Assembly: GCF_058153355.1 (NCBI RefSeq)
Contig: NZ_CM177019.1
Length of the DNA stretch: 64,000 nucleotides
Direction: 5' to 3' (one strand)
How positions within the stretch are numbered: position 1 is the stretch's first letter; every line of letters begins with the position of its first letter. The notes under the pieces are model-generated. The model saw only the letters and a list, made by a program, of their open reading frames with translations. It was not told the DNA's origin and made no database searches. The translations under genes and the position numbers were made by a program. Shown here in pieces: positions 31,783 to 50,157 of the stretch.

Positions 31783-31807
31783 AAGGGGGATATGCCCCCT
31801 TATTTGT
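31783..31807. terminator. Hairpin terminator shared by arsC and the convergent ArsR-family gene
   Basis: aaagggggatatgccccctt followed by tatttg. Confidence 0.6.
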
Positions 31808-32120
31808 TCTCCGCGGCTCCTTCGCCATCTGTTTTGCTGTTTACGCAGCACTCCTCACGTAAGAATTCAATTATCGCTTCCAGCATTGCGTATTGCGAAA
31901 CACACATCAGCGTCCGACTCTCACGGTTTTGTTTGACCAACCCTACCGATACCAGTGCTGAAATATGGTGACTGAGTGTAGAGCCGGGTATCCCAAGCTG
32001 CTTTTGCAACTCACCGACCGGCAACCCTTGTTCCCCCGCTTTGACCAGATGCTTAAATATGAACAAACGGGTCGGATGACCTAACTCTTTCAGTGCCTTA
32101 GCGACCTCTTCCAATTGCAT
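31800..32120 (-). CDS. ArsR/SmtB-family metalloregulator (second copy; C-terminal Cys pair)
   Basis: 106-aa ORF with a wHTH region (LPVGELQKQLGIPGSTLSHHISALVSVGLV) and C-terminal …REECCVNS; divergent from a permease gene. Confidence 0.75.
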   Translation of the reverse strand: MQLEEVAKALKELGHPTRLFIFKHLVKAGEQGLPVGELQKQLGIPGSTLSHHISALVSVGLVKQNRESRTLMCVSQYAMLEAIIEFLREECCVNSKTDGEGAAENK

Positions 32121-32215
32121 GTGTCACCCCCTCTGTCTGGTTGATATTTCGATAATACCAGAAATATCTTGATCTGAACTTCATTTCGATTATTCTGGAA
32201 ATATAGTTTTATTCA

Positions 32216-33229
32216 ATGAGGTTACTTATGAGTAGTTGGCTTGCGATGCTGCAAGATGCCGTAGAGATGTTTGTGTTTCTCGCCGTCGAGCTTTCTTTGC
32301 TGTTTATGGTGATTAGTGCCGGTGTCAGCCTGATAAGACAAAAGGTGCCAGACCATAAAATCCAGCAGATGATGGGGGCCAGAAAAGGGAGAGGCTATCT
32401 CCTGGCTGCTCTGTTGGGAGCCGTTACCCCGTTCTGTAGTTGCTCGACAATACCCATGCTACGTGGATTGTTGTCAGCGAAAGCCGGGTTTGGTCCGACT
32501 CTCACTTTTTTATTTGTTTCACCGTTACTTAATCCCATTATCGTCGGGTTAATGTGGGTGACCTTTGGTTGGAAAGTTACCTTGTTGTACGCGATTATCG
32601 CCGCCGGCGTCTCCGTACTTGCCAGTATTATCTTGGATTCTCTGAGATTTGAACGTCATATCATTGCCAGTAAAAGCTCATCAGCAAATTGTTGCTCTCC
32701 AGCCAAAACTTCGCCGGGGACGACATATACGCCAATAAAAGTGAGTTGCTGTAGTCCAGCGGCTAAAGCCATTGAGAAACCTGTAGTAAACTGTTGCAGT
32801 ACCAAAGCTGTGGTAAGTATTAATCCCATAAAACTAGCCACCAAAGATGCGTTGCAACAGTTTAAAGATGTACTGCCATATCTTTTGTTAGGGGTATTAA
32901 TAGGCTCTTTTATTTATGGCTTTATTCCCTCAGAGTGGATTGCCGCTCATGCAGGGGCAGATAATCCCTTCGCCATCCCATTGAGCGCCGTTGTCGGAAT
33001 CCCGCTGTATATCCGGGCAGAGGCGGTTATCCCTCTGGCATCTGTTCTGATGACAAAAGGAATGGGTCTGGGAGCATTAATGGCATTAATCATCGGCAGT
33101 GCCGGCGCAAGTCTGACAGAAGTGATATTACTTAAATCAATGTTCAGAATACCGATGATAGTTGCATTCCTGACGGTTATCTTAGGTATGGCTATCTTGA
33201 TGGGCTATTTGACTCAAATGCTATTTTAA
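32216..33229 (+). CDS. arsP: ArsP-like organoarsenical efflux permease with a Cys-rich loop
   Basis: 337-aa membrane protein containing TPFCSCSTIP, which I recall as the ArsP signature; internal Cys-rich segment with three CC dipeptides (NCCSPAK…SCCSPAAK…NCCSTKA). Confidence 0.7.
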   Translation: MRLLMSSWLAMLQDAVEMFVFLAVELSLLFMVISAGVSLIRQKVPDHKIQQMMGARKGRGYLLAALLGAVTPFCSCSTIPMLRGLLSAKAGFGPTLTFLFVSPLLNPIIVGLMWVTFGWKVTLLYAIIAAGVSVLASIILDSLRFERHIIASKSSSANCCSPAKTSPGTTYTPIKVSCCSPAAKAIEKPVVNCCSTKAVVSINPIKLATKDALQQFKDVLPYLLLGVLIGSFIYGFIPSEWIAAHAGADNPFAIPLSAVVGIPLYIRAEAVIPLASVLMTKGMGLGALMALIIGSAGASLTEVILLKSMFRIPMIVAFLTVILGMAILMGYLTQMLF

Positions 33230-33339
33230 ATAGATGCCAGCAGTAAACTATAAGGGTAAGCGTCTTATCAGGACCGTCTGGCAAATTCCCGATGCTTTGG
33301 ACAAAGTATCCACCACTAAATTAATAGTGGGTGATAAAA

Positions 33340-33374
33340 ATGTCAGATATACAAAAAAATGCCTCTCCGGGAAG
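33340..33374 (+). pseudogene. IS66-family tnpA (orf1), 5' fragment split by the IS4 insertion
   Basis: ATG at 33340 reads MSDIQKNASPGK then IS4 begins; the frame resumes at 34801 (…SPGRPKGCLNYPPEFKQRL…). Confidence 0.7.
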
Positions 33375-34800
33375 TAATGCCGATCAGTTAAGGATCAGTT
33401 GACCGATCCAGTGGCTGTGTAAGAATCCGGAAACGCTCACTTGTTTCCGGATTTTTTTATGCACATTGGACAGGCTCTTGATCTGGTATCCCGTTACGAT
33501 TCTCTGCGTAACCCACTGACTTCTCTGGGGGATTACCTCGACCCCGAACTCATCTCTCGTTGCCTTGCCGAATCAGGTACTGTAACGCTACGCAAGCGCC
33601 GTCTTCCCCTCGAAATGATGGTCTGGTGTATTGTTGGCATGGCGCTTGAGCGTAAAGAACCTCTTCACCAGATTGTGAATCGCCTGGACATCATGCTGCC
33701 GGGCAATCGCCCCTTCGTTGCCCCCAGTGCCGTTATTCAGGCCCGCCAGCGCCTGGGAAGTGAGGCTGTCCGCCGCGTGTTCACGAAAACAGCGCAGCTC
33801 TGGCATAACGCCACGCCGCATCCGCACTGGTGCGGCCTGACCCTGCTGGCCATCGATGGTGTGTTCTGGCGCACACCGGATACACCAGAGAACGATGCAG
33901 CCTTCCCCCGCCAGACACATGCCGGGAACCCGGCGCTCTACCCGCAGGTCAAAATGGTCTGCCAGATGGAACTGACCAGCCATCTGCTGACGGCTGCAGC
34001 CTTCGGCACGATGAAGAACAGCGAAAATGAGCTTGCTGAGCAACTTATAGAACAAACCGGCGATAACACTCTGACGTTAATGGATAAAGGTTATTACTCA
34101 CTGGGACTGTTAAATGCCTGGAGCCTGGCGGGAGAACACCGCCACTGGATGATACCTCTCAGAAAGGGAGCGCAATATGAAGAGATCAGAAAACTGGGTA
34201 AAGGCGATCATCTGGTGAAGCTGAAAACCAGCCCGCAGGCACGAAAAAAGTGGCCGGGACTGGGAAATGAAGTGACAGCCCGCCTGCTGACCGTGACGCG
34301 CAAAGGAAAAGTCTGCCATCTGCTGACGTCGATGACGGACGCCATGCGCTTCCCCGGAGGAGAAATGGCGGATCTGTACAGTCATCGCTGGGAAATCGAA
34401 CTGGGATACAGGGAGATAAAACAGACGATGCAACTGAGCAGGCTGACGCTGAGAAGTAAAAAGCCGGAGCTTGTGGAGCAAGAGCTGTGGGGTGTCTTAC
34501 TGGCTTATAATCTGGTGAGATATCAGATGATTAAAATGGCGGAACATCTGAAAGGTTACTGGCCGAATCAACTGAGTTTCTCAGAATCATGCGGAATGGT
34601 GATGAGAATGCTGATGACATTGCAGGGCGCTTCACCGGGACGTATACCGGAGCTGATGCGCGATCTTGCAAGTATGGGACAACTTGTGAAATTACCGACA
34701 AGAAGGGAAAGGGCCTTCCCGAGAGTGGTAAAGGAGAGGCCCTGGAAATACCCCACAGCCCCGAAAAAGAGCCAGTCAGTTGCTTAACTGACTGGCATTA
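33375..34800 (+). mobile_element. IS4 (1426 bp) nested inside the IS66-family element
   Basis: Terminal sequences TAATGCCGATCAG… and …CTGACTGGCATTA; 12-bp target duplication CTCTCCGGGAAG at 33363-33374 and 34801-34812; length matches the 1426 bp I recall for IS4. Confidence 0.9.
33459..34787 (+). CDS. insG: IS4 transposase InsG
   Basis: 442-aa product from [16 protein letters not shown]…; DDE transposase. Confidence 0.9.
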
Positions 34801-35197
34801 CTCTCCGGGAAGGCCTAAAGGGTGCCTGAATTATCCTCCTGAATTCAAACAACGACTCATAGAAGCATCATTCCAGCCAGGTGTTTCAATTTCCAGACTG
34901 GCCCTGGACAATGGTATTAATGCCAATCTGTTGTTCAAATGGCGTCAGAAATGGCGGCAGGGGAAGATAAAATTGCCATCATCAGAATCAGGCAGAGAAT
35001 CTCAGTTAATTCCTGTCACTATTGATGCCCAACTCCCAACTGCTCCGGCTAATGAGCCACTGACCGCAAGACCGTCAGTAACACCGGAAATACACAGCAT
35101 CTCCTGTGAGATTACGTTCAGAAACGGCACCCTTCGGTTGAACGGGGCAGTGAATGAAAATCTGCTGTCCTTGCTTATACAGGAGCTGAGACGGTGA
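34801..35197 (+). pseudogene. IS66-family tnpA (orf1), 3' portion downstream of the IS4 insertion
   Basis: Same frame as the 5' fragment; joined product is about 143 aa; stop overlaps tnpB start. Confidence 0.7.
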
Positions 35198-35541
35198 TAT
35201 CTCTCCCTGCAGGTTCGCGTATCTGGCTGGTTGCAGGTATCACCGATATGCGAAATGGCTTTAACGGCCTGGCCTCAAAAGTTCAGAACGTCCTGAAGGA
35301 TGACCCGTTCTCCGGGCATCTGTTCATCTTCCGCGGACGCCGGGGTGACCAGATAAAAGTGTTGTGGGCTGACAGTGACGGACTGTGCCTCTTCACCAGA
35401 CGCCTGGAGCGGGGCCGCTTCGTCTGGCCGGTCACCCGTGACGGCAAGGTGCACCTTACTCCGGCCCAGTTATCCATGCTTCTTGAGGGCATCGACTGGA
35501 AACACCCGAAACGAACGGAACGCGCTGGCATCCGCATATAA
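35194..35541 (+). CDS. IS66-family TnpB (orf2)
   Basis: 115-aa ORF (MISLPAGSRIWLVAGITDMRNGFNGLA…), typical of IS66 orf2. Confidence 0.85.
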   Translation: MISLPAGSRIWLVAGITDMRNGFNGLASKVQNVLKDDPFSGHLFIFRGRRGDQIKVLWADSDGLCLFTRRLERGRFVWPVTRDGKVHLTPAQLSMLLEGIDWKHPKRTERAGIRI

Positions 35542-35560
35542 CCCGTTGTAAAGTGAGGAT

Positions 35561-37132
35561 ATGGACACCTCACTTGCTCATGAGAATGCCCGCCTGCGGG
35601 CACTGTTGCAGACGCAACAGGACACCATCCGCCAGATGGCGAAATACAACCGCCTGCTCTCACAGCGGGTGGCGGCTTATGCTTCCGAAATCAACCGGCT
35701 GAAGGCGCTGGTTGCAAAACTGCAGCGCATGCAGTTCGGTAAAAGCTCAGAAAAACTTCGTGCAAAAACCGAACGGCAGATACAGGAAGCACAGGAGCGA
35801 ATCAGCGCTCTTCAGGAAGAAATGGCGGAAACGCTGGGTGAGCAATATGACCCGGTACTGCCATCTCCCCTGCGCCAGTCTTCAGCCCGTAAACCGTTAC
35901 CTGCCTCACTTCCCCGTGAAACCCGGGTCATCCGTCCGGAAGAGGAATGCTGCCCGGCCTGTGGTGGCGAACTCAGTTCTCTGGGATGTGATGTGTCAGA
36001 GCAACTGGAGCTTATCAGCAGCGCCTTTAAGGTTATCGAAACACAACGTCCGAAACTGGCCTGTTGCCGGTGCGACCATATCGTGCAGGCTCCGGTGCCT
36101 TCAAAACCCATTGCACGCAGTTATGCCGGAGCGGGGCTTCTGGCCCATGTTGTCGCTGGAAAATATGCAGACCATCTGCCGTTATACCGCCAGTCAGAAA
36201 TATACCGTCGTCAGGGCGTGGAGCTGAGCCGTGCCACACTGGGGCGCTGGACAGGTGCTGTTGCTGAACTGCTGGAACCGCTGTATGACATCCTGCGCCA
36301 GTATGTGCTGATGCCCGGTAAAGTCCATGCCGATGATATCCCCGTTCCGGTCCAGGAGCCGGGCAGCGGTAAAACAAGGACTGCCCGGCTGTGGGTCTAC
36401 GTTCGTGATGACCGTAACGCCGGTTCGGAAATGCCTCCGGCGGTCTGGTTCGCGTACAGCCCGGACCGGAAAGGTATCCATCCACAGAATCATCTGGCCG
36501 GTTACAGCGGAGTGCTTCAGGCCGATGCTTACGGTGGTTACCGGGCGTTGTACGAATCCGGCAGAATAACGGAAGCCGCATGTATGGCTCATGCCCGGAG
36601 AAAAATCCACGATGTGCATGCAAGAGTGCCCACCGACATCACCACGGAAGCCCTGCAGCGTATCGGTGAACTGTATGCCATCGAGGCAGAGGTCCGGGGC
36701 TGTTCAGCAGAACAGCGTCTGGCGGCAAGAAAAGCCAGAGCCGCGCCACTGATGCAGTCACTGTATGACTGGATACAGCAACAGATGAAAACACTGTCGC
36801 GTCACTCGGACACGGCAAAAGCGTTCGCATACCTGCTGAAACAGTGGGATGCACTGAACGTGTACTGCAGTAATGGCTGGGTGGAAATCGACAACAACAT
36901 CGCAGAGAACGCCTTACGGGGAGTGGCCGTAGGCCGGAAAAACTGGCTCTTCGCGGGTTCTGACAGCGGTGGTGAACATGCTGCGGTGTTGTACTCGCTG
37001 ATCGGCACATGCCGTCTGAACAATGTGGAGCCAGAAAAGTGGCTGCGTTACGTCATTGAACATATCCAGGACTGGCCGGCAAACCGGGTACGCGATCTGT
37101 TGCCCTGGAAAGTTGATCTGAGCTCTCAGTAA
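35561..37132 (+). CDS. IS66-family transposase TnpC (orf3)
   Basis: 523-aa ORF with an N-terminal leucine-zipper-like region, a CxxC…CxxC zinc-finger-like segment (CPACGG…CCRCDH) and a DDE domain. Confidence 0.85.
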
Positions 37133-37724
37133 ATATCAATACGGTTCTGGCGAGCCGCTTACCTATAAGGAGCATTGTGAGTGCCTTATCCTTCTGAGTA
37201 GAAAATCATAGATAGGATAATCCTTAAAAATCACAAATAACTTAACTAATGCTTTGAGAATGATGACGGATCCGTCAGTAAGTCATCAATCGACAATCAC
37301 CACGCAATCATGCTTCTCTGACATTTTATCGGAGAAGCAATGCCTCTTTGTCTCAGTGCTATCCCCCCTTTTAAAGGGCAGATTTCAGTCGCCAATACAA
37401 CACATTTTTAAATACACTTTAACCTGGTTCATTATTACACATCTAAAACATCACAAAAATATCACTTCACACGCTATCGGAGAACATCATAACTTTTTAA
37501 AATCAGCGCTTTTTGATAGTTGTTAATGTTTTCCTTTACGATACTATCACTGCCCTTTTTTTATACACAAATATTACCGGGTGGAAATGAAAGGGAAGTT
37601 AAAGGTAATTATATCAGGAAGATATGACGCATTGTGTTTATTTCCGCGTAGAAGAAAATCCATTCCTGCTCTAATTCTCCGATTTGCAAAAATTTAGCGA
37701 AATAGATGAACAATAAGGAATGTT

Positions 37725-38948
37725 ATGTCAATTGACTTTACCCCAGGTATGATAAATACATATCACGGCGATATTTATAACCGCACAACAGATACCGACA
37801 ATATTAAAACACCAAACACACCGATGTGGCCTTGTGATAATCAGGAAGAACAGCAACCCATTAATTTTTCATTGTCTGAAGAAGGATATAACGCTGAACA
37901 ATTTGATTTAGCGCAACAACAACTCCAACAAATTAATGCGTGCCACACGAACACCACATATACAAATGCAGACTACTCAAAAGTTGTGGCTCAACTTGTA
38001 AAACTTATTAATAACATTGAAACGATAAGTTCGACACCACTTACGCAACAGACACAATCAATACTTAATCAGATTAATAACATTAGATACGAAAAGAATA
38101 AAAACTCTGAATCTGAAATCATTGTTGTCTTTAATCCTAAGCCCAATAAGCCAATCATAACTAAAATTCTCGTAGAAGAGGGAATACCAGTAAGATTCAG
38201 TGTCCAAACCGTTTCTTCCGAAAATAAAAATTTTTCTGGGCAACGAACTGATTTACCAACTGATATAAAAGATATTCAACGCTTGTACCAAAAAATGACA
38301 AGGTTGTATATTGAGCACAGTAAAAATGAAAACAGGATGAAAGTCTTTGCTGGAACCAACTTTATTGATTTCAATATGACAGGACAGGACCTGTCCGGGT
38401 TCGTTCTAACCTTGTCAAGGTTTTATTTCGAAGATCTACTTAATGTAAACTTCACTGACGCAAATTTATTTGATACTATTTTTTCACATAAGGAAAACCC
38501 TATCACAAAATTACATAAAGATGAACAATATGTTGACAAACAAATCAATGGGTTATTTTCAACATTATTAACCATTAATGACAACTCTTTAAGAGCAAAA
38601 GCGGAAATTGCTTCGATAATAATAGAATTATTAGAAACCAAGGTAAATAATCTTTCATACAACGACATAATAAAATATCAGAAAGAATTCCAAAAAGAAT
38701 GTTACAAGCAAGTTAAATATTTTACAACACCCTCTCGATACAATAGAATTAAAAAATGGGCACAAATGTCTGAATATCAATTCGAAATATTTCAACACGA
38801 TACGTTTCATCCTAAAAAAATGTCATACGCACCTTATTTAAAGAGATCGCTACCTGATGAAAAAACTATAAATTATGGGGTGGAAATAGAAATACCAACT
38901 GGCAAAAGAATTCGCTTATCAAATCATTACCAGAATATAATCCCATAA
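37725..38948 (+). CDS. yhiS: Uncharacterised protein YhiS (intact here) with pentapeptide-like repeats
   Basis: 407-aa AT-rich ORF immediately upstream of slp; segment [40 protein letters not shown] resembles pentapeptide repeats. Confidence 0.7.
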
Positions 38949-39915: not shown

Positions 39916-40446
39916 ATGTTTCTTATAATTACCAGGGATACGATGTTCTTCACTGCGATGAAAAACATTCTGAGCAAAGGTAATGTCGTTCATATACAGA
40001 ACGAAGAAGAGATCGACGTAATGTTGCATCAGCATGCCTTCGTCATTATTGATACATTAATGAATAATGTATTTCATTCTAATTTGCTCACTCAGATTGA
40101 ACGATTAAAACCTGTCCATGTGATTATTTTCTCTCCCTTTAATATTAAACGCTGCCTGGGGAAAGTACCGGTGACCTTTGTTCCGCGAACTATCACCATC
40201 ATCGACTTTGTCGCACTCATCAATGGCAGTTACTGCTCTGTGCCTGAAGCGGATGTGTCCCTTTCGCGCAAGCAGCATCAGGTTCTGAGCTGCATTGCGA
40301 ATCAAATGACAACGGAAGATATTCTGGAGAAACTGAAAATATCGCTAAAAACGTTCTACTGCCATAAACACAATATCATGATGATCCTCAATCTTAAGCG
40401 GATCAATGAGTTGGTACGCCATCAGCATATTGATTATCTGGTGTGA
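39916..40446 (+). CDS. dctR: LuxR-family transcriptional regulator DctR (YhiF)
   Basis: 176-aa ORF with a C-terminal LuxR-type HTH. Confidence 0.9.
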   Translation: MFLIITRDTMFFTAMKNILSKGNVVHIQNEEEIDVMLHQHAFVIIDTLMNNVFHSNLLTQIERLKPVHVIIFSPFNIKRCLGKVPVTFVPRTITIIDFVALINGSYCSVPEADVSLSRKQHQVLSCIANQMTTEDILEKLKISLKTFYCHKHNIMMILNLKRINELVRHQHIDYLV

Positions 40447-40506: not shown

Positions 40507-41535
40507 TTATGCAGTAACGCCTTCCGGTATCAGCGAAGCAATTTGCTTACGCCATTGCGCTTGCTCCTGTTCGCCTTCTGTACGTTGACCATAAAGTTGC
40601 GCTATCTGCGTACCATCATGGGCAAACAATTCCAGACTGGTCACATAACCGTCACTAGCAGGTTTACGGGTTACCCAGGTTTCAGCAATGCTCTCTTCTA
40701 ATAGATGAAGAGTAAACGTCGGGTTAAAAATATTCAGCCAACCTTTCATTGGCACCACTTTTTCTACCACGCCAGTGAAAATCTGTACGCAGCCACGGTT
40801 GCCAACAAACACCATGATTTCATTGCCATCCTGCTGTGCAGATTCAAGAATTTGCGCCAACGCACTGTTGGATACTTTGCAGGCCAAATCATCTGCCACC
40901 AAATTGAACGCCTGTTGGCGCGTCAGGTTGTGGCGCTTGAGCAACGTAAAAAACTGATGAACGTCGGTCATCGCCCGCCACTCTTGCTCGACCACACTGG
41001 CATCGGCTCGCGTTTGAACAACTGGCGCATCAACGGCTTTTAACTCAAGCGGCGTATTCTCATCGGTGATAAACCGTGCCAGAAGCTCACTCCATGCCGC
41101 CATATCGGTATTGTCGGTGGCATAAACTTTTAGTAATGCATCGCCCTGATGATCAAAGAACTGAATACTCTGGCGTTCGCCACGAGTCGTATTTTCTTTG
41201 ATGTGGAAAACACTGGCCCATTGATTGAGAAACAGACGCAAATCCAGCGCGCGCGGATTGAGGATCAATCCGGCATGTCCGTTTAAATGCTGGTTTGTGA
41301 ACGCACCAACTTGCTCATGGACTGCATATTCATTACGACAAATACATTTGGTCTCGCCAACACTTTCGAGCGCCGCCAGAATGTCACGGATATCGCCGCA
41401 CATCCGCCACGCATCGTGCGTGACGCGCGCAAATGCCAGTTCTGCTTCGCTAATATTCATTAAACCTGCGATGTCACGCGCGTACTTTCCGGGATTTTGT
41501 TCTTTTAACTCAAGCCAGCGTGTGTAGTGGTTCAT
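40507..41535 (-). CDS. chuS: Haem oxygenase / haem degradation protein ChuS (HemS family)
   Basis: 342-aa ORF immediately downstream of the TonB-dependent receptor gene; translation matches my recollection of ChuS/ShuS. Confidence 0.85.
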   Translation of the reverse strand: MNHYTRWLELKEQNPGKYARDIAGLMNISEAELAFARVTHDAWRMCGDIRDILAALESVGETKCICRNEYAVHEQVGAFTNQHLNGHAGLILNPRALDLRLFLNQWASVFHIKENTTRGERQSIQFFDHQGDALLKVYATDNTDMAAWSELLARFITDENTPLELKAVDAPVVQTRADASVVEQEWRAMTDVHQFFTLLKRHNLTRQQAFNLVADDLACKVSNSALAQILESAQQDGNEIMVFVGNRGCVQIFTGVVEKVVPMKGWLNIFNPTFTLHLLEESIAETWVTRKPASDGYVTSLELFAHDGTQIAQLYGQRTEGEQEQAQWRKQIASLIPEGVTA

Positions 41536-41583
41536 TGTCTCTCTTCCTTCCAGATAAATGCCCCGAAATATCGGGGCAGATGA

Positions 41584-43566
41584 TTACCATTGATAACTAA
41601 CGAAAATTTTTCCGTTACGACCATCCTGTGGGATGCCTTGCGGCGACCAGTACTCTTTGTCGAAGGCGTTGCCCAATACCAGAGTAGTGGTCATACCTTT
41701 GAGCGCCTGCTGCCCTTGATAACTGACGTAGAAATCATTCACACCATAGCCAGGTTGTTTGCTGTAACTGCTGCTGATATGTGTTGAGCGATCGGCAAAC
41801 GTACCGACCCAACCAACAGAGAAGCCACTGTGAGCGATCGGAATATTCAGGGTGCTGGTAACGGTATCCGGGTTAATACTGGAAATATATTCCCCGGTAT
41901 CGGTGTCTTTGCCGCGGGTACGGTTATAGGCCACATCAAGGCTAAACAGATCAGTGGTATATTTCGTCATCACATCCCAGCCCCAGATTTTGGCGTTCGG
42001 GACGTTATACGACATAGTTGTCGCCGCCGCGAAATCGACAGTCGTGGAGATGTAATCCTTCGCTTTGGTATCAAAGTAGCTGGCTTTAAATTCCAGGGCA
42101 TCATTGGACAACATCAGGTCATCAAAACGCAGCCCAAAACCGTACTCCTGAGTTTCGTTAGTTTCCGGACGTAAGTTCGGGTTTGGCACCCAATAGTTGG
42201 TATAGAAGCGACCAATCGAGAAGTGCTTAGAATCGTTATACATTTCGCCCATCGTCGGGGCGCGGAATGCCTGGGCATATGAGCCAAATAACATCAGCCA
42301 GTTGGTCGGGTTGATAGTCATCCCCGCACGAGATGACCATTTGTCAGCATCAACATCTTTGTAGCCGTCGCTGCTACCGTGATAACTGTCATAGCGGGTT
42401 CCGCCAAGCAGGGTAATCGGCAGATCGCGTAAGGTGATCTCATCCTGTAGCCAGCCAGAGCTAAAATCGATTTTTGCTTGCGGAAAGCCCGTCGTCGCGC
42501 CACCCGGATGTTGTTCCTGACGATAATACTCACCGCCATATGTCAGTAAGTGAGAAGCGAAACTGTCGGCAAATAGAGTGGAACGGTTCTCCAGCCTGGC
42601 TCCTTTTGTTATCTGTTCACGATACTCGCCGGAACTCCCCGTGTTTTGCGCATTAATACGGACTTCCGACCAGTAAATTTTTGCATCTGCATTTAACCAG
42701 TCGTTGCCCTGCGGGGCGAGTTTATAAGAAAGCTGCGCATCGCGTTGAATTGTTGAACGATCAACCATCGGGTTGCTGTTTTCAGAAGCCTCAACGGTCT
42801 GCGGATTTTTTGGTTCACGCGCGTCGTTGTTGTAGTAACGCACTAAACCGCTCAGAGACTGGGCTGAATCAATTTGCCAGGTCCCTTTCGCCAGCATGTT
42901 ATTAATGGACTCGTCATTCGGCGCGGTTTCACCATTGCTCTGGCGTAAATCACCCCGATCGCGACTGGACCAGGCCACAATACCATCCAGATTTTCAGTT
43001 CGCCCAAACGCGCTCGCGCCTAATCCCAGGCTATGGTCCCCCGTGCCACCAGTACCAAAGACACGAAAACCACTACTTTGTCCTTCCTGCAATAAATCTT
43101 TTGCATCGACCGTATCGTAGGAGATCACCCCACCCAGCGCGCCACTGCCATACAGTAATGCTGAAGGTCCGCGAACAATCTCAACACGCTTGATCAGCGC
43201 CGGATCGAGAAAAGTACCATTCAGATGTCCGGTATCCGTTCCCTGGCGAACACCATCGACAAGAACCAGCACGCCGCGATGATCATAGCCACGCATATTT
43301 ACATCCTGACCGTTGGTTCGTCCGGTACCATCAAGAGTAATTCCAGGAACATGACGCAGCAGATCGGTGGCTGAAGTAGCCGTTTGATTTTCAGGAGCGG
43401 AAGTGTCGATGACGCTGACCATCATAGGCGCTTCGAAGGAACTACGGGCATTCCCCGTTGCCGTAACGGTCATGGTTTCAGTAGCAAAAGCAAACGTTGG
43501 CAAGGTGGCAGAAACAGCCAAAGCCAACAAACTCAAACGCAACGAGGTAAATTGCGGACGTGACAT
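41584..43566 (-). CDS. chuA: TonB-dependent outer-membrane haem receptor ChuA
   Basis: 660-aa ORF with signal peptide, plug domain and C-terminal aromatic residue (…FVSYQW); Fur box upstream. Confidence 0.9.
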   Translation of the reverse strand: MSRPQFTSLRLSLLALAVSATLPTFAFATETMTVTATGNARSSFEAPMMVSVIDTSAPENQTATSATDLLRHVPGITLDGTGRTNGQDVNMRGYDHRGVLVLVDGVRQGTDTGHLNGTFLDPALIKRVEIVRGPSALLYGSGALGGVISYDTVDAKDLLQEGQSSGFRVFGTGGTGDHSLGLGASAFGRTENLDGIVAWSSRDRGDLRQSNGETAPNDESINNMLAKGTWQIDSAQSLSGLVRYYNNDAREPKNPQTVEASENSNPMVDRSTIQRDAQLSYKLAPQGNDWLNADAKIYWSEVRINAQNTGSSGEYREQITKGARLENRSTLFADSFASHLLTYGGEYYRQEQHPGGATTGFPQAKIDFSSGWLQDEITLRDLPITLLGGTRYDSYHGSSDGYKDVDADKWSSRAGMTINPTNWLMLFGSYAQAFRAPTMGEMYNDSKHFSIGRFYTNYWVPNPNLRPETNETQEYGFGLRFDDLMLSNDALEFKASYFDTKAKDYISTTVDFAAATTMSYNVPNAKIWGWDVMTKYTTDLFSLDVAYNRTRGKDTDTGEYISSINPDTVTSTLNIPIAHSGFSVGWVGTFADRSTHISSSYSKQPGYGVNDFYVSYQGQQALKGMTTTLVLGNAFDKEYWSPQGIPQDGRNGKIFVSYQW

Positions 43567-43855
43567 AGCGATTCTCCATGAGGAAAATAAAAAATGCTGG
43601 CTGCCTGGGTTAATACCGGGGTGGCTTGCGAGAAATAAATTTATTTAAAATTCAGAGCGATAATATTCGCCGGGTGAGTTTACAGGCGTTTATATCCCAT
43701 GAAATTGCCTGGTATCTCGGCAAATACGCAAAAGCACGCCCTCTTTGTCAGGCAAAACGATATGCCCCATCAGGAGTGAAGAGCGCTGTGCGTTATCCCT
43801 TGCAAATGCTATGGTTTTGTTATCCATATGGTCGTGTTTTGTTAAGCGCGAACGT

Positions 43856-43874
43856 GATAATGAGAATTATTATC
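43856..43874. promoter_or_regulatory. Fur box in the chuA-chuT divergent promoter region
   Basis: gataatgagaattattatc closely matches the 19-bp Fur consensus GATAATGATAATCATTATC. Confidence 0.75.
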
Positions 43875-44248
43875 GATCAATTTTTTATGATCAAGCTTTT
43901 TTTAACCGCCATTAACACAATAAACAGGGGGTTATGAAACCTATCCTGCGCCCTGGAAACCACTTTGTTTTTATGGTTATTCCCCCATGACCTCATCACT
44001 AAACTTTGTCGTTAACAGTGATAATTTTCTCTTCTCTTTGCTCTGCAAGCCGCGATATCTCTGGGTTCTCAGCTTTTTCCCGCGCTGAAATTTAGTCGGT
44101 AACAAGAACGTTAGCTGACGAAGCATCTTGATAAAAATCAAAAATAAATACGCTTGTAACGCCTTGCGTATTGAATCGACGGTTGTATTTCATATATAAC
44201 TCAAATGATAATCATGATCATTCTCAATTTGATAAGAGTTCTCATATT

Positions 44249-45163
44249 ATGCCAAGGATCATCACCAGGCCGTTTCTTTTTTCCCCACTGACGTTATGTA
44301 TTTCAGCCGTGGCCTCTGCCGCGAAGACCGCGGTAAAACGAAAAAAATTGTTTACGGCAGTACTGGCTCTTAGCTGGGCTTTTAGCGTAACGGCTGCCGA
44401 ACGTATCGTGGTCGCAGGAGGATCGCTGACGGAGCTAATCTACGCGATGGGCGCTGGCGAACGCGTGGTTGGTGTCGATGAAACGACATCTTATCCACCA
44501 GAAACCGCCAAACTGCCGCATATTGGCTACTGGAAACAACTCAGCAGCGAAGGCATTTTGTCACTTCGCCCGGATAGCGTAATTACCTGGCAGGATGCCG
44601 GGCCACAAATTGTGCTCGACCAACTACGAGCGCAGAAAGTCAACGTCGTCACCCTGCCGCGTGTGCCTGCCACCCTTGAGCAGATGTACGCCAACATTCG
44701 CCAACTGGCAAAAACGCTACAGGTTCCTGAACAAGGCGAGGCGCTGGTGACACAGATCAACCAACGCCTGGAGCGAGTACAGCAAAACGTGGCGGGCAAA
44801 AAAGCCCCGGTTAAAGCCATGTTTATTCTCTCCGCAGGCGGAAGTGCGCCACAGGTTGCCGGTAAAGGCAGCGTCGCGGACGCCATTCTTTCGCTTGCCG
44901 GAGCAGAAAACGTCGCAACCCACCAGCAGTACAAAAGCTACAGTGCAGAATCACTGATTGCGGCTAATCCAGAAGTGATTGTCGTAACCTCACAAATGGT
45001 CGATGGCGATATTAACCGGCTACGTTCTATTGCCGGAATTACCCACACTGCCGCATGGAAAAACCAGCGCATTATCACCGTTGATCAAAACCTGATTCTG
45101 GGAATGGGTCCGCGTATTGCTGATGTCGTTGAGTCTTTACACCAGCAGCTTTGGCCGCAATAA
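44249..45163 (+). CDS. chuT: Periplasmic haem-binding protein ChuT (start codon uncertain)
   Basis: ABC substrate-binding protein with a signal-peptide-like N-terminus; the ORF-track start at 44171 may over-extend. Confidence 0.75.
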   Translation: MPRIITRPFLFSPLTLCISAVASAAKTAVKRKKLFTAVLALSWAFSVTAAERIVVAGGSLTELIYAMGAGERVVGVDETTSYPPETAKLPHIGYWKQLSSEGILSLRPDSVITWQDAGPQIVLDQLRAQKVNVVTLPRVPATLEQMYANIRQLAKTLQVPEQGEALVTQINQRLERVQQNVAGKKAPVKAMFILSAGGSAPQVAGKGSVADAILSLAGAENVATHQQYKSYSAESLIAANPEVIVVTSQMVDGDINRLRSIAGITHTAAWKNQRIITVDQNLILGMGPRIADVVESLHQQLWPQ

Positions 45164-45182
45164 ATGGATTTAAATCAGACGA

Positions 45183-46520
45183 ATGAACACAAATAACCCC
45201 CTGGATCTCACGCCACATTTTGCTTTAGACGGTGATCAGCCATTTAAAGACAGGCGCGCCATGATGCCGTTTCGTGGGGCCATTCCAGTTGCCAAAGAGC
45301 AACTGGCACAGACCTGGCAAGAGATGCTCAATCAAACGGTATCACCACGTAAGCGACTGGTTTATCTACACATTCCTTTTTGTGCAACACACTGCACGTT
45401 TTGTGGTTTTTATCAGAACCGTTTTAATGAAGATGCGTGTGCTCATTATACCGACGCCCTGATTCGTGAAATAGAAATGGAAGCGGACAGCGTATTGCAT
45501 CAGTCTGCCCCCATCCACGCGGTCTATTTCGGTGGCGGCACGCCTTCCGCGCTTTCGGCACACGATTTGGCCAGAATTATCACCACATTACGAGAAAAGC
45601 TGCCACTGGCCCCTGATTGTGAAATCACTATCGAAGGCCGGGTACTGAATTTTGACGCTGAGCGAATCGATGCTTGCCTTGATGCAGGAGCAAACCGCTT
45701 CTCAATTGGTATTCAGTCGTTTAACAGCAAAATCCGTAAGAAAATGGCCCGCACCTCGGATGGCCCAACCGCCATTGCGTTTATGGAAAGCCTGGTCAAA
45801 CGCGACCGTGCTGCGGTGGTCTGTGACCTTCTGTTTGGCCTGCCGGGTCAGGATGCGCAAACCTGGGGAGAAGATCTGACTATTGCCCGCGATATCGGTC
45901 TCGACGGCGTCGATCTCTATGCGCTCAATGTCCTGCCCAATACACCGCTGGGCAAAGCCGTGGAAAATGGGCGTACTACCGTGCCCTCTCCGGCAGAACG
46001 ACGCGATCTTTATCTGCAAGGGTGTGACTTCATGGACGAAGCTGGTTGGCGCTGTATCAGTAACAGCCACTGGGGCCGTACCACACGCGAACGCAATCTC
46101 TATAACCTGCTGATTAAACAAGGTGCCGATTGTCTGGCCTTTGGTTCCGGAGCCGGCGGTTCGATTAATGGTTACTCCTGGATGAACGAACGCAGTCTTC
46201 AGACCTGGCATGAATCCGTCGCGGCAGGCAAAAAACCGCTGATGATGATCATGCGTAACGCCGAACGTAATGCGCAATGGCGTCATACCTTGCAGTCAGG
46301 TGTTGAAACAGCGCGTGTACCGCTGGATGAACTTACGCCACATGCCGAAAAACTCGCGCCGTTACTGGCTCAATGGCACCAAAAAGGCTTAAGCCGCGAT
46401 GCTTCAACTTGCCTGCGGCTGACTAATGAAGGTCGTTTCTGGGCAAGCAATATTTTGCAGTCTCTTAATGAACTAATTCAGGTACTTAATGCGCCAGCGA
46501 TTGTGCGTGAAAAACCATAA
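45183..46520 (+). CDS. chuW: Radical SAM haem-degrading enzyme ChuW (HemN-like)
   Basis: 445-aa ORF with the radical SAM Cys motif CATHCTFC. Confidence 0.85.
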   Translation: MNTNNPLDLTPHFALDGDQPFKDRRAMMPFRGAIPVAKEQLAQTWQEMLNQTVSPRKRLVYLHIPFCATHCTFCGFYQNRFNEDACAHYTDALIREIEMEADSVLHQSAPIHAVYFGGGTPSALSAHDLARIITTLREKLPLAPDCEITIEGRVLNFDAERIDACLDAGANRFSIGIQSFNSKIRKKMARTSDGPTAIAFMESLVKRDRAAVVCDLLFGLPGQDAQTWGEDLTIARDIGLDGVDLYALNVLPNTPLGKAVENGRTTVPSPAERRDLYLQGCDFMDEAGWRCISNSHWGRTTRERNLYNLLIKQGADCLAFGSGAGGSINGYSWMNERSLQTWHESVAAGKKPLMMIMRNAERNAQWRHTLQSGVETARVPLDELTPHAEKLAPLLAQWHQKGLSRDASTCLRLTNEGRFWASNILQSLNELIQVLNAPAIVREKP

Positions 46521-46532
46521 CAGGAGTGATTT

Positions 46533-47027
46533 ATGAGCCATGTCTCGTTACAAGAATTTTTGAAAACGGAGCCGGACGGTACGCTGGAGGTGGTAGCCGA
46601 ACAATACAACACCACACTGCTGGAAGTAGTGAGAAATCTACCCTCCTCTACCGTAGTGTCAGGCGATAAATTCGATACTGTCTGGGATACCGTCTGCGAA
46701 TGGGGCAACGTCACCACGTTAGTACATACTGCCGATGTAATCCTCGAATTTAGCGGCGAACTGCCTTCGGGTTTCCATCGCCACGGCTATTTCAACCTAC
46801 GCGGAAAGCACGGCATGTCCGGGCATATCAAAGCAGAAAACTGCACACATATTGCCTTGATCGAACGTAAATTTATGGGCATGGACACCGCATCCATTCT
46901 CTTTTTCAACAAAGAAGGCAGCTCAATGCTGAAAATCTTCCTCGGCAGGGATGACCATCGTCAGCTCCTGAGCGAACAAGTCAGCGCCTTCCATGCTCTG
47001 GCAGCATCGTTAAAGGAACACGCCTGA
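46533..47027 (+). CDS. chuX: Haem utilisation protein ChuX
   Basis: 164-aa ORF in chu operon context. Confidence 0.8.
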   Translation: MSHVSLQEFLKTEPDGTLEVVAEQYNTTLLEVVRNLPSSTVVSGDKFDTVWDTVCEWGNVTTLVHTADVILEFSGELPSGFHRHGYFNLRGKHGMSGHIKAENCTHIALIERKFMGMDTASILFFNKEGSSMLKIFLGRDDHRQLLSEQVSAFHALAASLKEHA

Positions 47028-47650
47028 TGACGCCGTGGCTACTCTTTGGCGCAGGCGGAAAAGGTGTGGGTGCCAGAACGCTTGAACTGGCGCTGGCGGA
47101 ACAACGTCCGGTCGTTGCTGTCATTCGTCATGCTGATGCTGCCACGAAACTGGCGCAACAAGGCGTACAGGTTTTTACAGGCGACGCCTGTGATGCCAGC
47201 GTAGTCGCGGCTGCTTGCCGCGCAGCTGGCCCGGATGCGCTTATCATCTCAACAATGGGCGGAGCTCAGGATTATCTGGCACACAGAACAGTGATTGATG
47301 AGGCCGAAAAGGCCGGCATCAGTCGCATGATTCTGGTGACCTCTTTGGGATGTGGCGATAGCTGGCCGTTTTTATCGGAGCGGGCAAAGGCTGCGTTTGG
47401 TCAGGCGGTACGGGAAAAAACGCTGGCGGAAAGCTGGTTGCAAACCAGCCAGCTTGATTACGCCATTCTCCGCCCTGGCGGTCTGCTTGATGGTGCGGCA
47501 ACGGGCAAAGCACAACGGATACAAAATCAGGAGTGTCATGGTTTTGTTAACCGTGTCGATGTCGCCGCACATATCCATGAACTGGCAAATGCGCCAGCAC
47601 TTAACCAGCAGGTCTACAGTCTGATTGAACCGGACCTGAAACCGGCGTGA
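47027..47650 (+). CDS. chuY: NAD(P)-binding reductase ChuY
   Basis: 207-aa ORF with an N-terminal Rossmann-like Gly-rich motif (LFGAGGKG); start overlaps chuX stop. Confidence 0.8.
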   Translation: MTPWLLFGAGGKGVGARTLELALAEQRPVVAVIRHADAATKLAQQGVQVFTGDACDASVVAAACRAAGPDALIISTMGGAQDYLAHRTVIDEAEKAGISRMILVTSLGCGDSWPFLSERAKAAFGQAVREKTLAESWLQTSQLDYAILRPGGLLDGAATGKAQRIQNQECHGFVNRVDVAAHIHELANAPALNQQVYSLIEPDLKPA

Positions 47651-47698
47651 TCCCCCGGCGCGGAATCTCCGCGCCGTAATGTCGTAACGGAGTTTTGC

Positions 47699-48691
47699 GT
47701 GCTCAAGGATTCACTCTCTTCCGCCAGGGTCTTTATGGGGCTATCACTATTATTGCTAGCTCTGGTGCTGTTCGGTGCCAGTCAGGGAGCGTTAAAGATC
47801 AGTTTTGATGCCCTTTTTGATGAGGAATACCGCGATATCTGGCTCAATATTCGTCTACCACGGGTTTTGCTGGCGGTGCTGGTAGGTGCAGCGTTGGCAA
47901 CCGCCGGGGTAATTATGCAGGGGCTTTTTCGCAACCCAATGGCTGACCCTGGATTACTCGGCGTCAGTAGCGGTTCTGCATTAATGGTTGGCGTTGCTAT
48001 TGTGCTGCCCTTTTCCTTCCCAGTGGTGCTGGTGCTCTATGAGCAAATGGTGTTTGCCATTGCCGGAAGTTTAGTGGTCTGCACCATCATTTTTCTCATC
48101 ACGCAGCGCCATCGCGATGGAAGCATGATGCAATTATTACTCGCCGGTATCGCCATCAATGCCCTGTGCGGCGCAGCGATCGGCATCCTGAGCTATATCG
48201 GCGATGAGCAGCAGCTACGACAACTCACATTGTGGATGATGGGCAATCTTGGACAGGCGCAATGGCCGACGTTATTGGTTGCCAGTTCATTCATCCTACC
48301 GGCCATTATTGCAACAACTTGTCTCGCCGGAACGCTGAATTTACTGCAGCTCGGTGATGAAGAAGCCCACTACCTCGGCGTGAACGTTAAGCGTAAACGC
48401 CAGCAATTACTGTTAGTGAGCTCACTGCTCGTTGGTGCCGCCGTATCGGTAAGCGGCATTATCGGCTTTATTGGCCTGGTGATCCCGCATCTGATTCGTA
48501 TGACTACCGGGGCAAATCACCGCTGGCTAATCCCTTGCTCCGCCCTCGCCGGAGCCTGTTTATTGCTGATGGCAGACACGCTTGCCCGCACACTGGTACA
48601 GCCAGCAGAAATGCCCGTGGGATTATTAACCAGCCTGCTTGGTGGCCCTTATTTTATGTGGTTGATTCTGCGCAACCGGAGGATCACATGA
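47699..48691 (+). CDS. chuU: Haem ABC transporter permease ChuU
   Basis: 330-aa FecCD-family polytopic membrane protein. Confidence 0.85.
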
Positions 48692-49458
48692 TCAGCGCCC
48701 AGAATCTGGTTTATAGCCTTCAGGGGCGGCGTCTGACTGATAATGTCTCGCTGACTTTTCCCGGTGGGGAAATTGTTGCCATTCTCGGCCCTAATGGTGC
48801 GGGAAAATCTACGCTGCTTCGCCAGTTAACCGGCTATCTTCAACCTGATAGCGGCGAATGTCGGTTGTTTAATAAGCCATTAAATGAATGGTCGATTACT
48901 GAACTGGCGAAACACCGGGCCGTGATGCGTCAAAATAGCCACATGGCGTTTCCATTCAGCGTACAAGAAGTTATCCAGATGGGGCGGCATCCGCATCGTA
49001 CTGGTAATCAGGATAATGAAACAGCACAAATAATGGCGTTATGTGACTGTCAGGCGTTAGCAAACCGCGACTATCGGCAATTATCCGGTGGTGAACAACA
49101 GCGCGTGCAATTAGCGCGCCTGCTGGTGCAACTCTGGGAACCAACTCCCTCACCGAAATGGTTATTTCTTGATGAACCAACTTCGGCGCTGGATATTCAC
49201 CATCAGCAGCACTTGTTTCGTTTATTACGCCAGCTAGTTCACGAACGGCAGTTCAATGTTTGCTGCGTATTGCACGATCTAAATCTTGCCGCGCGTTATG
49301 CAGACCGTGTTGTATTAATGCAAAAAGGAAAGGTTATCGCAAATGGTAAACCGCAGGACGTATTGACACAGCAGGCGCTGACAATGCTCTACGGCGCGGA
49401 TATTACCGTACTTAAAGATCCTGCCAACCATTCACCACTGATCGTCCTCGATCATTAA
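48688..49458 (+). CDS. chuV: Haem ABC transporter ATPase ChuV
   Basis: 256-aa product from MISAQNLVY with Walker [10 protein letters not shown] and signature LSGGEQQR; 4-bp overlap with chuU. Confidence 0.85.
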
Positions 49459-49509
49459 AACCAACAGGAGTACCGCTCTGGTACTCCTGCGAATAAATAA
49501 CTATATAGA

Positions 49510-50157
49510 TTAGCTAATTGAAACGCCTTTCACCCCTGCCATACCTTTTAATAATCGCAACAGATCTTCTATCGACGTCGTGGCATGAAGCTGGATATCA
49601 ATGGCGACCACTTCATGATCTTCATTTTCCTGCAACGAAACTAAATCCGTTTTTATTTTTTGCTGCTTAAACCAGTCGAGCATTGATACCGTATTACCGT
49701 TCACTAATGTCAGCTGTAAATGGTAATTTTTATTCATCAGGCGGAAGGTTAATTGATGGAAGACTTCCAGCACCAGTAAGGTCATCACTGAACCATAAAT
49801 GCCCAGTTCGTACATACCGCTACCAATAACCATACCAATGGCGGCGGTCACCCAGATATCCGCTGCCGTCGTCAGACCTACAATATTTTGGTTACGAACG
49901 AGAATGTTACCTGCACCGATAAACCCGACGCCCGTCACCACCTGAGCAGCAATACGGCTGGGGTCCAGTCCGACGTGATCTAAAGACAGCACGTCAGCAA
50001 AACCATATTTCGAAACAATCATAAACAGGGCGCTTCCCATGCCAATTAATACATGTGTGCGTAACCCTGCTCCTTTGCCGCGCATTTGCCTTTCCATGCC
50101 AATAGCGCCACAGGCAATTGCTGCGAGTATAAGACGTATAATAAATTCTGTTGTCAT
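49510..50157 (-). CDS. yhiD: MgtC-family inner membrane protein YhiD
   Basis: 215-aa product from MTTEFIIRLILAAIACGAIGMERQ. Confidence 0.85.
   Translation of the reverse strand: MTTEFIIRLILAAIACGAIGMERQMRGKGAGLRTHVLIGMGSALFMIVSKYGFADVLSLDHVGLDPSRIAAQVVTGVGFIGAGNILVRNQNIVGLTTAADIWVTAAIGMVIGSGMYELGIYGSVMTLLVLEVFHQLTFRLMNKNYHLQLTLVNGNTVSMLDWFKQQKIKTDLVSLQENEDHEVVAIDIQLHATTSIEDLLRLLKGMAGVKGVSIS

Follow-up and report, generated by a model that had tools for sequence, protein, structure and literature searches.

A complete chu locus for haem uptake and utilisation, flanked by dctR and yhiD, in the acid-fitness island of a non-K-12 Escherichia coli

The chu locus of Escherichia coli, named shu in Shigella, has been studied since 1997-98 and lets many strains of both obtain iron by importing and degrading haem from the host. 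Well-described versions are those of E. coli O157:H7 (EDL933/Sakai), of uropathogenic E. coli (UPEC; CFT073, UTI89) and of S. dysenteriae type 1. Here we compare with them a locus in a 64,000-nucleotide stretch of contig NZ_CM177019.1 (RefSeq assembly GCF_058153355.1; hereafter the window), in which positions 40507-49458, exactly the span from the chuS stop codon to the chuV stop codon, hold eight intact genes between dctR and yhiD. The described systems have the same eight genes in the same order, on the same strands and at the same lengths, and share with the window the dctR/yhiD junctions, the Fur operators and the FourU RNA thermometer; O157:H7 and UPEC chu show only allelic differences from it (97.7% identity for O157:H7, 96.8% for B2). 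Every defining feature of chu/shu that can be looked for in a sequence was found, and the locus is almost certainly the canonical chu (= shu) haem uptake and utilisation system, complete and apparently functional. It is also an ordinary, known feature: publications already cover the locus itself, how it is regulated, where it sits in the island and its role in phylogroup typing. Co-location of chu with the acid-fitness island has been reported (bioRxiv 10.1101/188599; PMC9144400), and Carter et al. distinguish an island of ~22 kb that contains chu from a K-12 form of ~13 kb (PMC9144400).

We checked the gene identities in three ways: with NCBIfam models, with solved structures and with the RefSeq annotation (Prokaryotic Genome Annotation Pipeline) of a genome that is 99.8% identical over an 11-kb query. 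Together with the open reading frames (ORFs), they bear out the eight genes and strands proposed in the initial annotation. The minus strand carries chuS (40507-41535, 342 aa), encoding a haem oxygenase or haem-degrading protein that matches PDB 1U9T/4CDP over its full length (E 1e-227), and, 48 bp upstream of it, chuA (41584-43566, 660 aa), encoding an outer-membrane haem/haemoglobin receptor that depends on TonB. ChuA scores 586 bits against TIGR01785 (cut-off 317, residues 30-660) and about 1430-1443 bits against the ChuA/ShuA structures 9DIR/9DHE/3FHH.

The plus strand carries the remaining six genes. chuT/shuT (44249-45163, 304 aa) encodes a periplasmic haem-binding protein matching PDB 2R7A (E 6e-162); chuW (45183-46520, 445 aa) a radical-SAM methyltransferase of anaerobic haem degradation (TIGR04107, the ChuW/HutW model, 571 bits, cut-off 400); chuX (46533-47027, 164 aa) a cytosolic haem carrier (TIGR04108, HutX/ChuX, 208 bits, cut-off 110; PDB 2OVI); and chuY (47027-47650, 207 aa) an anaerobilin reductase, which returned no NCBIfam match and is assigned from PDB 5GUY/5FFQ (E 1e-134). 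They are followed by chuU/shuU (47699-48691, 330 aa, GTG start), encoding the permease of a haem ATP-binding cassette (ABC) transporter, named from FecCD-family similarity and RefSeq annotation, and by chuV (hmuV; 48688-49458, 256 aa), encoding its ATPase (NF010068, the haem ABC ATPase equivalog, 397 bits, cut-off 261). Near-identical solved structures exist for ChuS, ChuA/ShuA, ShuT, ChuX and ChuY; the structural relative of ChuW is the distant HemN 1OLT only. The 99.8%-identical genome is annotated in the same order, as dctR, chuS, chuA, shuT, hutW, hutX, chuY, shuU, a haem ABC ATPase and yhiD. A mechanical ORF list gave two long minus-strand ORFs (40507-41535 and 41584-43566) and then plus-strand ORFs from 44171 to 49458; in it chuT began at a TTG at 44171 and chuV was a long ORF from 48535, and we replaced these starts with the annotated ATG at 44249 and the annotated start at 48688.

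One part of this identification is less direct than the rest, and it counts against a haem assignment for the importer: ChuU and ChuT fall below every NCBIfam equivalog cut-off, and their top matches there are the BtuC and BtuF families, respectively. These matches are what speaks for a rival reading in which the genes serve a different ligand (vitamin B12 or a siderophore, for example). Against it, ChuT has a near-identical match in 2R7A, the structure of haem-bound ShuT, from which, along with the RefSeq annotation, its identity is taken; ChuV clears the haem ABC ATPase equivalog; and the transporter genes are co-operonic with chuW, chuX and chuY. We give a ligand other than haem practically no weight.

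The functions of the Chu proteins, including the division between aerobic ChuS and anaerobic ChuW, ChuX and ChuY, have been summarised previously (PMC9002310). Carried over from these characterised orthologues to the source strain, they would form a single route: ChuA would import haem across the outer membrane with energy from TonB, and ChuT would ferry it through the periplasm and pass it on to the importer formed by ChuU and ChuV. Haem that has reached the cytoplasm would be degraded by ChuS when oxygen is present, and without oxygen ChuW, by radical-SAM chemistry, would act with ChuX and ChuY to open the ring and reduce the resulting anaerobilin.

Chu loci can decay: Escherichia sp. MOD1-EC7003 retains chuA and chuS only, and one E. 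coli genome carries just 24% of the segment. The copy in the window could in principle be such a remnant, non-functional in its strain, but none of the eight ORFs is truncated or interrupted by a stop, their lengths equal those of O157:H7 and ABU 83972, and the promoters, Fur boxes and thermometer are intact and identical to characterised sequences. A decaying locus is thus very improbable.

The regulatory elements lie in the 682-bp spacer between chuA and chuT. We aligned this spacer from five sources (the window, O157:H7, ABU 83972 and two ~90%-identical Escherichia genomes) and found three invariant blocks: the thermometer with about 60 nt beyond it; the chuA promoter with its Fur block; and ~150 bp that run from the chuT upstream region through its promoter and Fur site into the leader. 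Promoters and operators are thus unchanged among lineages that differ by about 10% elsewhere, and positions 43940-44100 are the least conserved part of the spacer. An 18-codon ORF with a good Shine-Dalgarno sequence at 43935-43991 was rejected, as its ATG and frame are lost in the two ~90% lineages and the sequence around it is this variable stretch.

The initial annotation had placed one near-consensus Fur box in this divergent region. That box is present, at 43856-43874 (GATAATGAGAATTATTATC, 17/19 to consensus, 2 mismatches), where it overlaps the -10 hexamer and transcription start of chuA; it is not the only one. A second site at 44207-44225 on the plus strand (GATAATCATGATCATTCTC, 16/19, 3 mismatches) covers +1 to +19 of the chuT transcript, and no further Fur site with at most 3 mismatches exists in the 64 kb, where chance would give 0.02. 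Because one lies at the chuA -10 element and start and the other at chuT +1 to +19, about 350 bp apart, they are predicted to be two operators, one per promoter, and not a single shared box. The same search found no recognisable Fur box before chuU; in the literature, chuUV is treated as a separate unit (PMC9002310).

Published data from relatives agree with this layout. A promoter-like site for chuA at 43866-43894 on the minus strand (-35 TTGATC, 17-nt spacer, -10 AATAAT) puts the start near 43857-43859 and implies a leader of 291-293 nt, in agreement with the 291 nt measured in Sakai by differential RNA sequencing (PMC9002310) and with the 293-nt fragment used for UTI89 (PMC3660397). For chuT, a promoter identified by eye at 44171-44200 on the plus strand (-35 TTGAAT at 44171-76, 18-nt spacer, -10 TATAAC at 44195-200) is positioned consistently with the 42-nt shuT 5′ untranslated region (UTR) mapped in S. 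dysenteriae, where electrophoretic mobility shift assays and deletion analysis located a Fur site at +1 to +19 (PMC5458455). Fur box 2 begins 42 nt upstream of the chuT ATG, an exact positional match to that site. Chromatin immunoprecipitation sequencing (ChIP-seq) of Fur in CFT073 found chuAS and chuTWXYU to be direct targets (PMC7157518). By analogy with these orthologues, the two separate operators would gate the locus by iron in the source strain, with both promoters repressed in iron-replete cells.

The long chuA 5′ UTR (about 291 nt, 43567-43857, minus strand), whose ~90 nt nearest the start codon are invariant across Escherichia lineages, contains a FourU RNA thermometer at 43564-43595 (minus strand). 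In it UUUUCCUC pairs with GGAGAAU and occludes the chuA Shine-Dalgarno sequence. The full Rfam model RF02597 (shuA_thermo) matches with 60.1 bits against a gathering score of 58, the other Rfam matches in 39-51 kb being far under their gathering scores and dismissed, and the predicted fold (minimum free energy -8.2 kcal/mol, z -2.15) pairs the U-run (UUUU) with the GGAG of the Shine-Dalgarno sequence. The hairpin is reported to block chuA translation below 37 °C (PMC3660397), and the ~291-nt leader would confer the same temperature gating here. The 48-bp chuA-chuS spacer contains another hairpin, G+C-rich with 8 pairs followed by a T-run (41559-41578, minus strand), which could attenuate or stabilise the bicistronic transcript.

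The third invariant block also contains a candidate site for the anaerobic regulator FNR. The sequence TTGATAAAAATCAA at 44128-44141 is a perfect FNR consensus, unchanged in all five aligned lineages and centred at -72.5 relative to the chuT start, close to the -71.5 of class-I activators. The 64 kb contain just one further perfect TTGAT-N4-ATCAA site, making two where 0.20 would be expected. This other site, TTGATAGGAATCAA at 63549-63562, precedes the start codon of ccp (yhjA; 63442, minus strand) by about 110 bp; ccp/yhjA is FNR-activated, and its upstream site provided an internal positive control in the motif search. The Yersinia chuW homologue has, upstream of it, a degenerate FNR-like site beside a Fur-like box. 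Tentatively, and at less than even odds, the chuT-upstream sequence may be a functional class-I FNR activator site. If so, lack of oxygen would directly switch on the chuT-W-X-Y operon and with it anaerobic haem degradation. The small RNA FnrS represses the oxygen-dependent ChuS, and together FNR at chuT and FnrS on ChuS would form a two-armed oxygen switch layered over Fur, which would explain how cells in the gut decide whether to degrade haem with or without oxygen. FNR ChIP-seq was reportedly performed in K-12, which has no chu. We found no paper tying the FNR protein to the chuT/shuT promoter in the searchable, incomplete literature, and offer the site as a lead and not as a claim of priority; this conserved FNR-type site is the sole element of the locus that could add to what is known.

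The left flank of the locus is dctR (yhiF; 39916-40446, plus strand) and the right flank is yhiD (49510-50157, minus strand), within the slp-gadA acid-fitness island, as first annotated. The same junctions occur in O157:H7, ABU 83972 and the nearest genome. In K-12 MG1655, only 41 bp and no chu separate the convergent dctR and yhiD genes, which bears out the earlier statement that K-12 lacks the locus. We mapped the break points by BLAST and by alignment by eye: the left-hand homology to K-12 extends as far as the dctR TGA (40446), and the right-hand homology begins at about 49507, shortly ahead of the yhiD stop. In place of the 9.06-kb segment from 40447 to ~49506, K-12 thus has 36-38 unrelated bases. 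Inside the segment, downstream of yhiD, a terminator-like hairpin at 49464-49490 (minus strand, 11 bp and a T-tail) looks like the yhiD terminator.

This segment lacks what would mark it as an integrative mobile island: a gene for an integrase or transposase, an att site or tRNA, and direct repeats at its two ends. It contains no integrase, insertion sequence (IS) or mobility gene, all of its ORFs being chu genes; no tRNA gene lies within 30-55 kb; and no direct or inverted repeat of at least 9 bp spans the two junctions. Its GC content (50.3%) differs from that of the adjacent island flanks (42.7% and 39.2%) and yet is close to the window mean of 48.8%; the flanks are the part with the atypical base composition.

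Insertion sequences do occur to the left of the chu segment, at 33256-37162, where an IS4-family element (32-nt inverted repeats at 33361-33392 and 34783-34814, transposase 33441-34787) adjoins an IS66-family element (tnpA, tnpB and transposase at 34589-37132). We considered them as a mobility hallmark of chu and discarded the idea: they are 3.3 kb away, past yhiS, slp and dctR. Neither element is present in genome E200086, although its sequence is otherwise 99.4-99.8% identical. Around them, 31800-33229 and 37725-38948 hold an ArsR/SmtB-family regulator and a divergent SO_0444-like permease, located between arsC and yhiS and absent from K-12, and an intact yhiS (407 aa, 32.5% GC), whose K-12 copy is split by IS5.

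We surveyed 5426 complete E. coli genomes for the segment and found it in 2238, in 2234 of them at no less than 80% coverage. It is always chromosomal and is single-copy in all but one carrier. A further 3178 genomes show an uninterrupted junction of the K-12 type (at least 99% identity), constituting one empty-site allele. The chu allele of the window is 99.8% identical to that of 12/5426 genomes; identity is 98.2-98.5% for a large group, 97.7% for O157:H7 and O145, and 96.8% for B2 strains such as ABU 83972 and O127:H6. Since only 12 genomes reach 99.8%, the allele evidently comes from a sparsely sampled lineage, and this match, with the presence of chu itself, upholds the earlier view that the source is not K-12.

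The practical value of the locus is as a strain marker for chuA-positive, non-K-12 E. coli. In silico, the Clermont chuA amplicon falls at 43044-43331 (288 bp); with the quadruplex primers used, the predicted products of 288, 211, 400 and 301 bp match the published sizes. The nearest genome, E200086, types as arpA+ chuA+ yjaA+ and yields the E-specific arpA amplicon, which suggests a non-O157 phylogroup E-like lineage; this types a relative and not the source genome.

We considered whether chu was gained at this site or lost from K-12. A scan for ChuS with one genome per species returned three Escherichia loci and many from other Enterobacteriaceae. Two genomes deposited as E. coli (L005 and L006), about 90% identical to the window, have a full chu locus with dctR on one side and yhiD on the other; identity to the window is 89-94.5% for their chu genes and 84-95% for the flanking slp, dctR, yhiD and hdeAB. 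This similar divergence of chu and flanks points to co-inheritance since before the lineages split, and co-inheritance together with a single uniform empty-site allele leads us to read the absence from K-12 as a later loss. Most likely, then, the common ancestor that E. coli shares with its sister lineages in Escherichia already had chu at this site, and a single clean deletion removed it from the K-12 lineage.

Three observations make this polarity less certain: the E. fergusonii island has dctR beside yhiD without chu; the two ~90% lineages were deposited as "E. coli"; and the 36-38-bp filler of K-12 has no significant similarity to the chu junctions or to the E. fergusonii spacer, so the empty site bears no recognisable deletion scar. 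A possible scar in the filler was sought against the junctions, on both strands and over the whole segment, and discarded, since 29/500 shuffles reached the best local score; exact and 3-mismatch searches of the window with the filler also found nothing. E. fergusonii was rejected as an empty-site outgroup: its dctR-yhiD spacer, 73 bp long, is unlike both the filler of K-12 and the junctions of the window and is too diverged to polarise the event. Its island (slp-dctR-yhiD-hdeBA-hdeD-gadE-mdtEF) is located beside uxuA/uxuB/uxuR and not the ars operon, and its YhiD is 73% identical to that of the window.

The initial annotation had described chu as inserted. Taken literally, this makes the K-12 site the ancestral empty state, a reading to which the E. 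fergusonii arrangement, the 59% of complete E. coli genomes without chu, the contrast of its 50.3% GC with the 39-43% of the island flanks and its patchwork relationship to the Citrobacter/Enterobacter hemRSTUV loci (80-88% for ChuA and ChuS, about 32% for ChuT, no chuWXY) all lend something. It has to contend with the lack of an integrase, tRNA, IS or flanking repeats of 9 bp or longer and of any plasmid-borne copy, with the identical junctions of all chu-positive genomes and the ~90% Escherichia lineages, in which chu divergence equals that of the flanks, and with the uniformity of the empty-site allele among chu-negative genomes. We consider it unlikely. "Inserted" holds relative to K-12 and perhaps in deep time, but the ~90% lineages carry chu at the same junctions. 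An ancient insertion into a pre-existing island may have occurred and would be compatible with chu being ancestral at this site and lost later from the K-12 lineage: the lack of chu in E. fergusonii, the GC contrast with the flanks and the mosaic make-up of the locus would fit an older event in which chu and the island came together. A published xenoGI analysis arrived at the same picture with the same uncertainty (bioRxiv 10.1101/188599).

The partial locus of Escherichia sp. MOD1-EC7003 (L004; reverse-complement coordinates 13184-13307 and 13615-13698) contains what look like ERIC repeats. The part corresponding to window 43996-49501, from the chuT promoter through chuV, is missing, and its right-hand break point is within about 5 bp of that of K-12. 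The missing stretch is replaced by an apparent ERIC/IRU repeat, and an apparent second ERIC copy is inserted in the chuA 5′ UTR near window position 43690.

Outside Escherichia and Shigella, the closest relatives of chu are the hem (hmu) loci. The hemR-S-T-U-V genes of Citrobacter, Enterobacter, Kluyvera, Buttiauxella and others form one colinear operon, whereas E. coli chu is made of two divergent units, and the hem loci are found in other genomic contexts without an acid-fitness island. The receptor and HemS/ChuS of the Citrobacter and Enterobacter loci are 80-88% and 75-85% identical, respectively, to those of the window, but identity drops to about 60% for the ABC permease, about 50% for the ATPase and only 31-36% between HemT and ChuT. 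chuWXY is absent from the other enterobacterial hem loci, and in Yersinia it is found upstream in the same orientation. Judged by these identities, the Escherichia chu locus is a mosaic when set against hemR-S-T-U-V. The hutWXZ genes of Vibrio and Edwardsiella parallel the anaerobic part of chu, with ChuW and ChuX passing the HutW and HutX equivalog models, and differ from it in the third gene: ChuY is an NAD(P)H-dependent anaerobilin reductase and not a HutZ-type protein.

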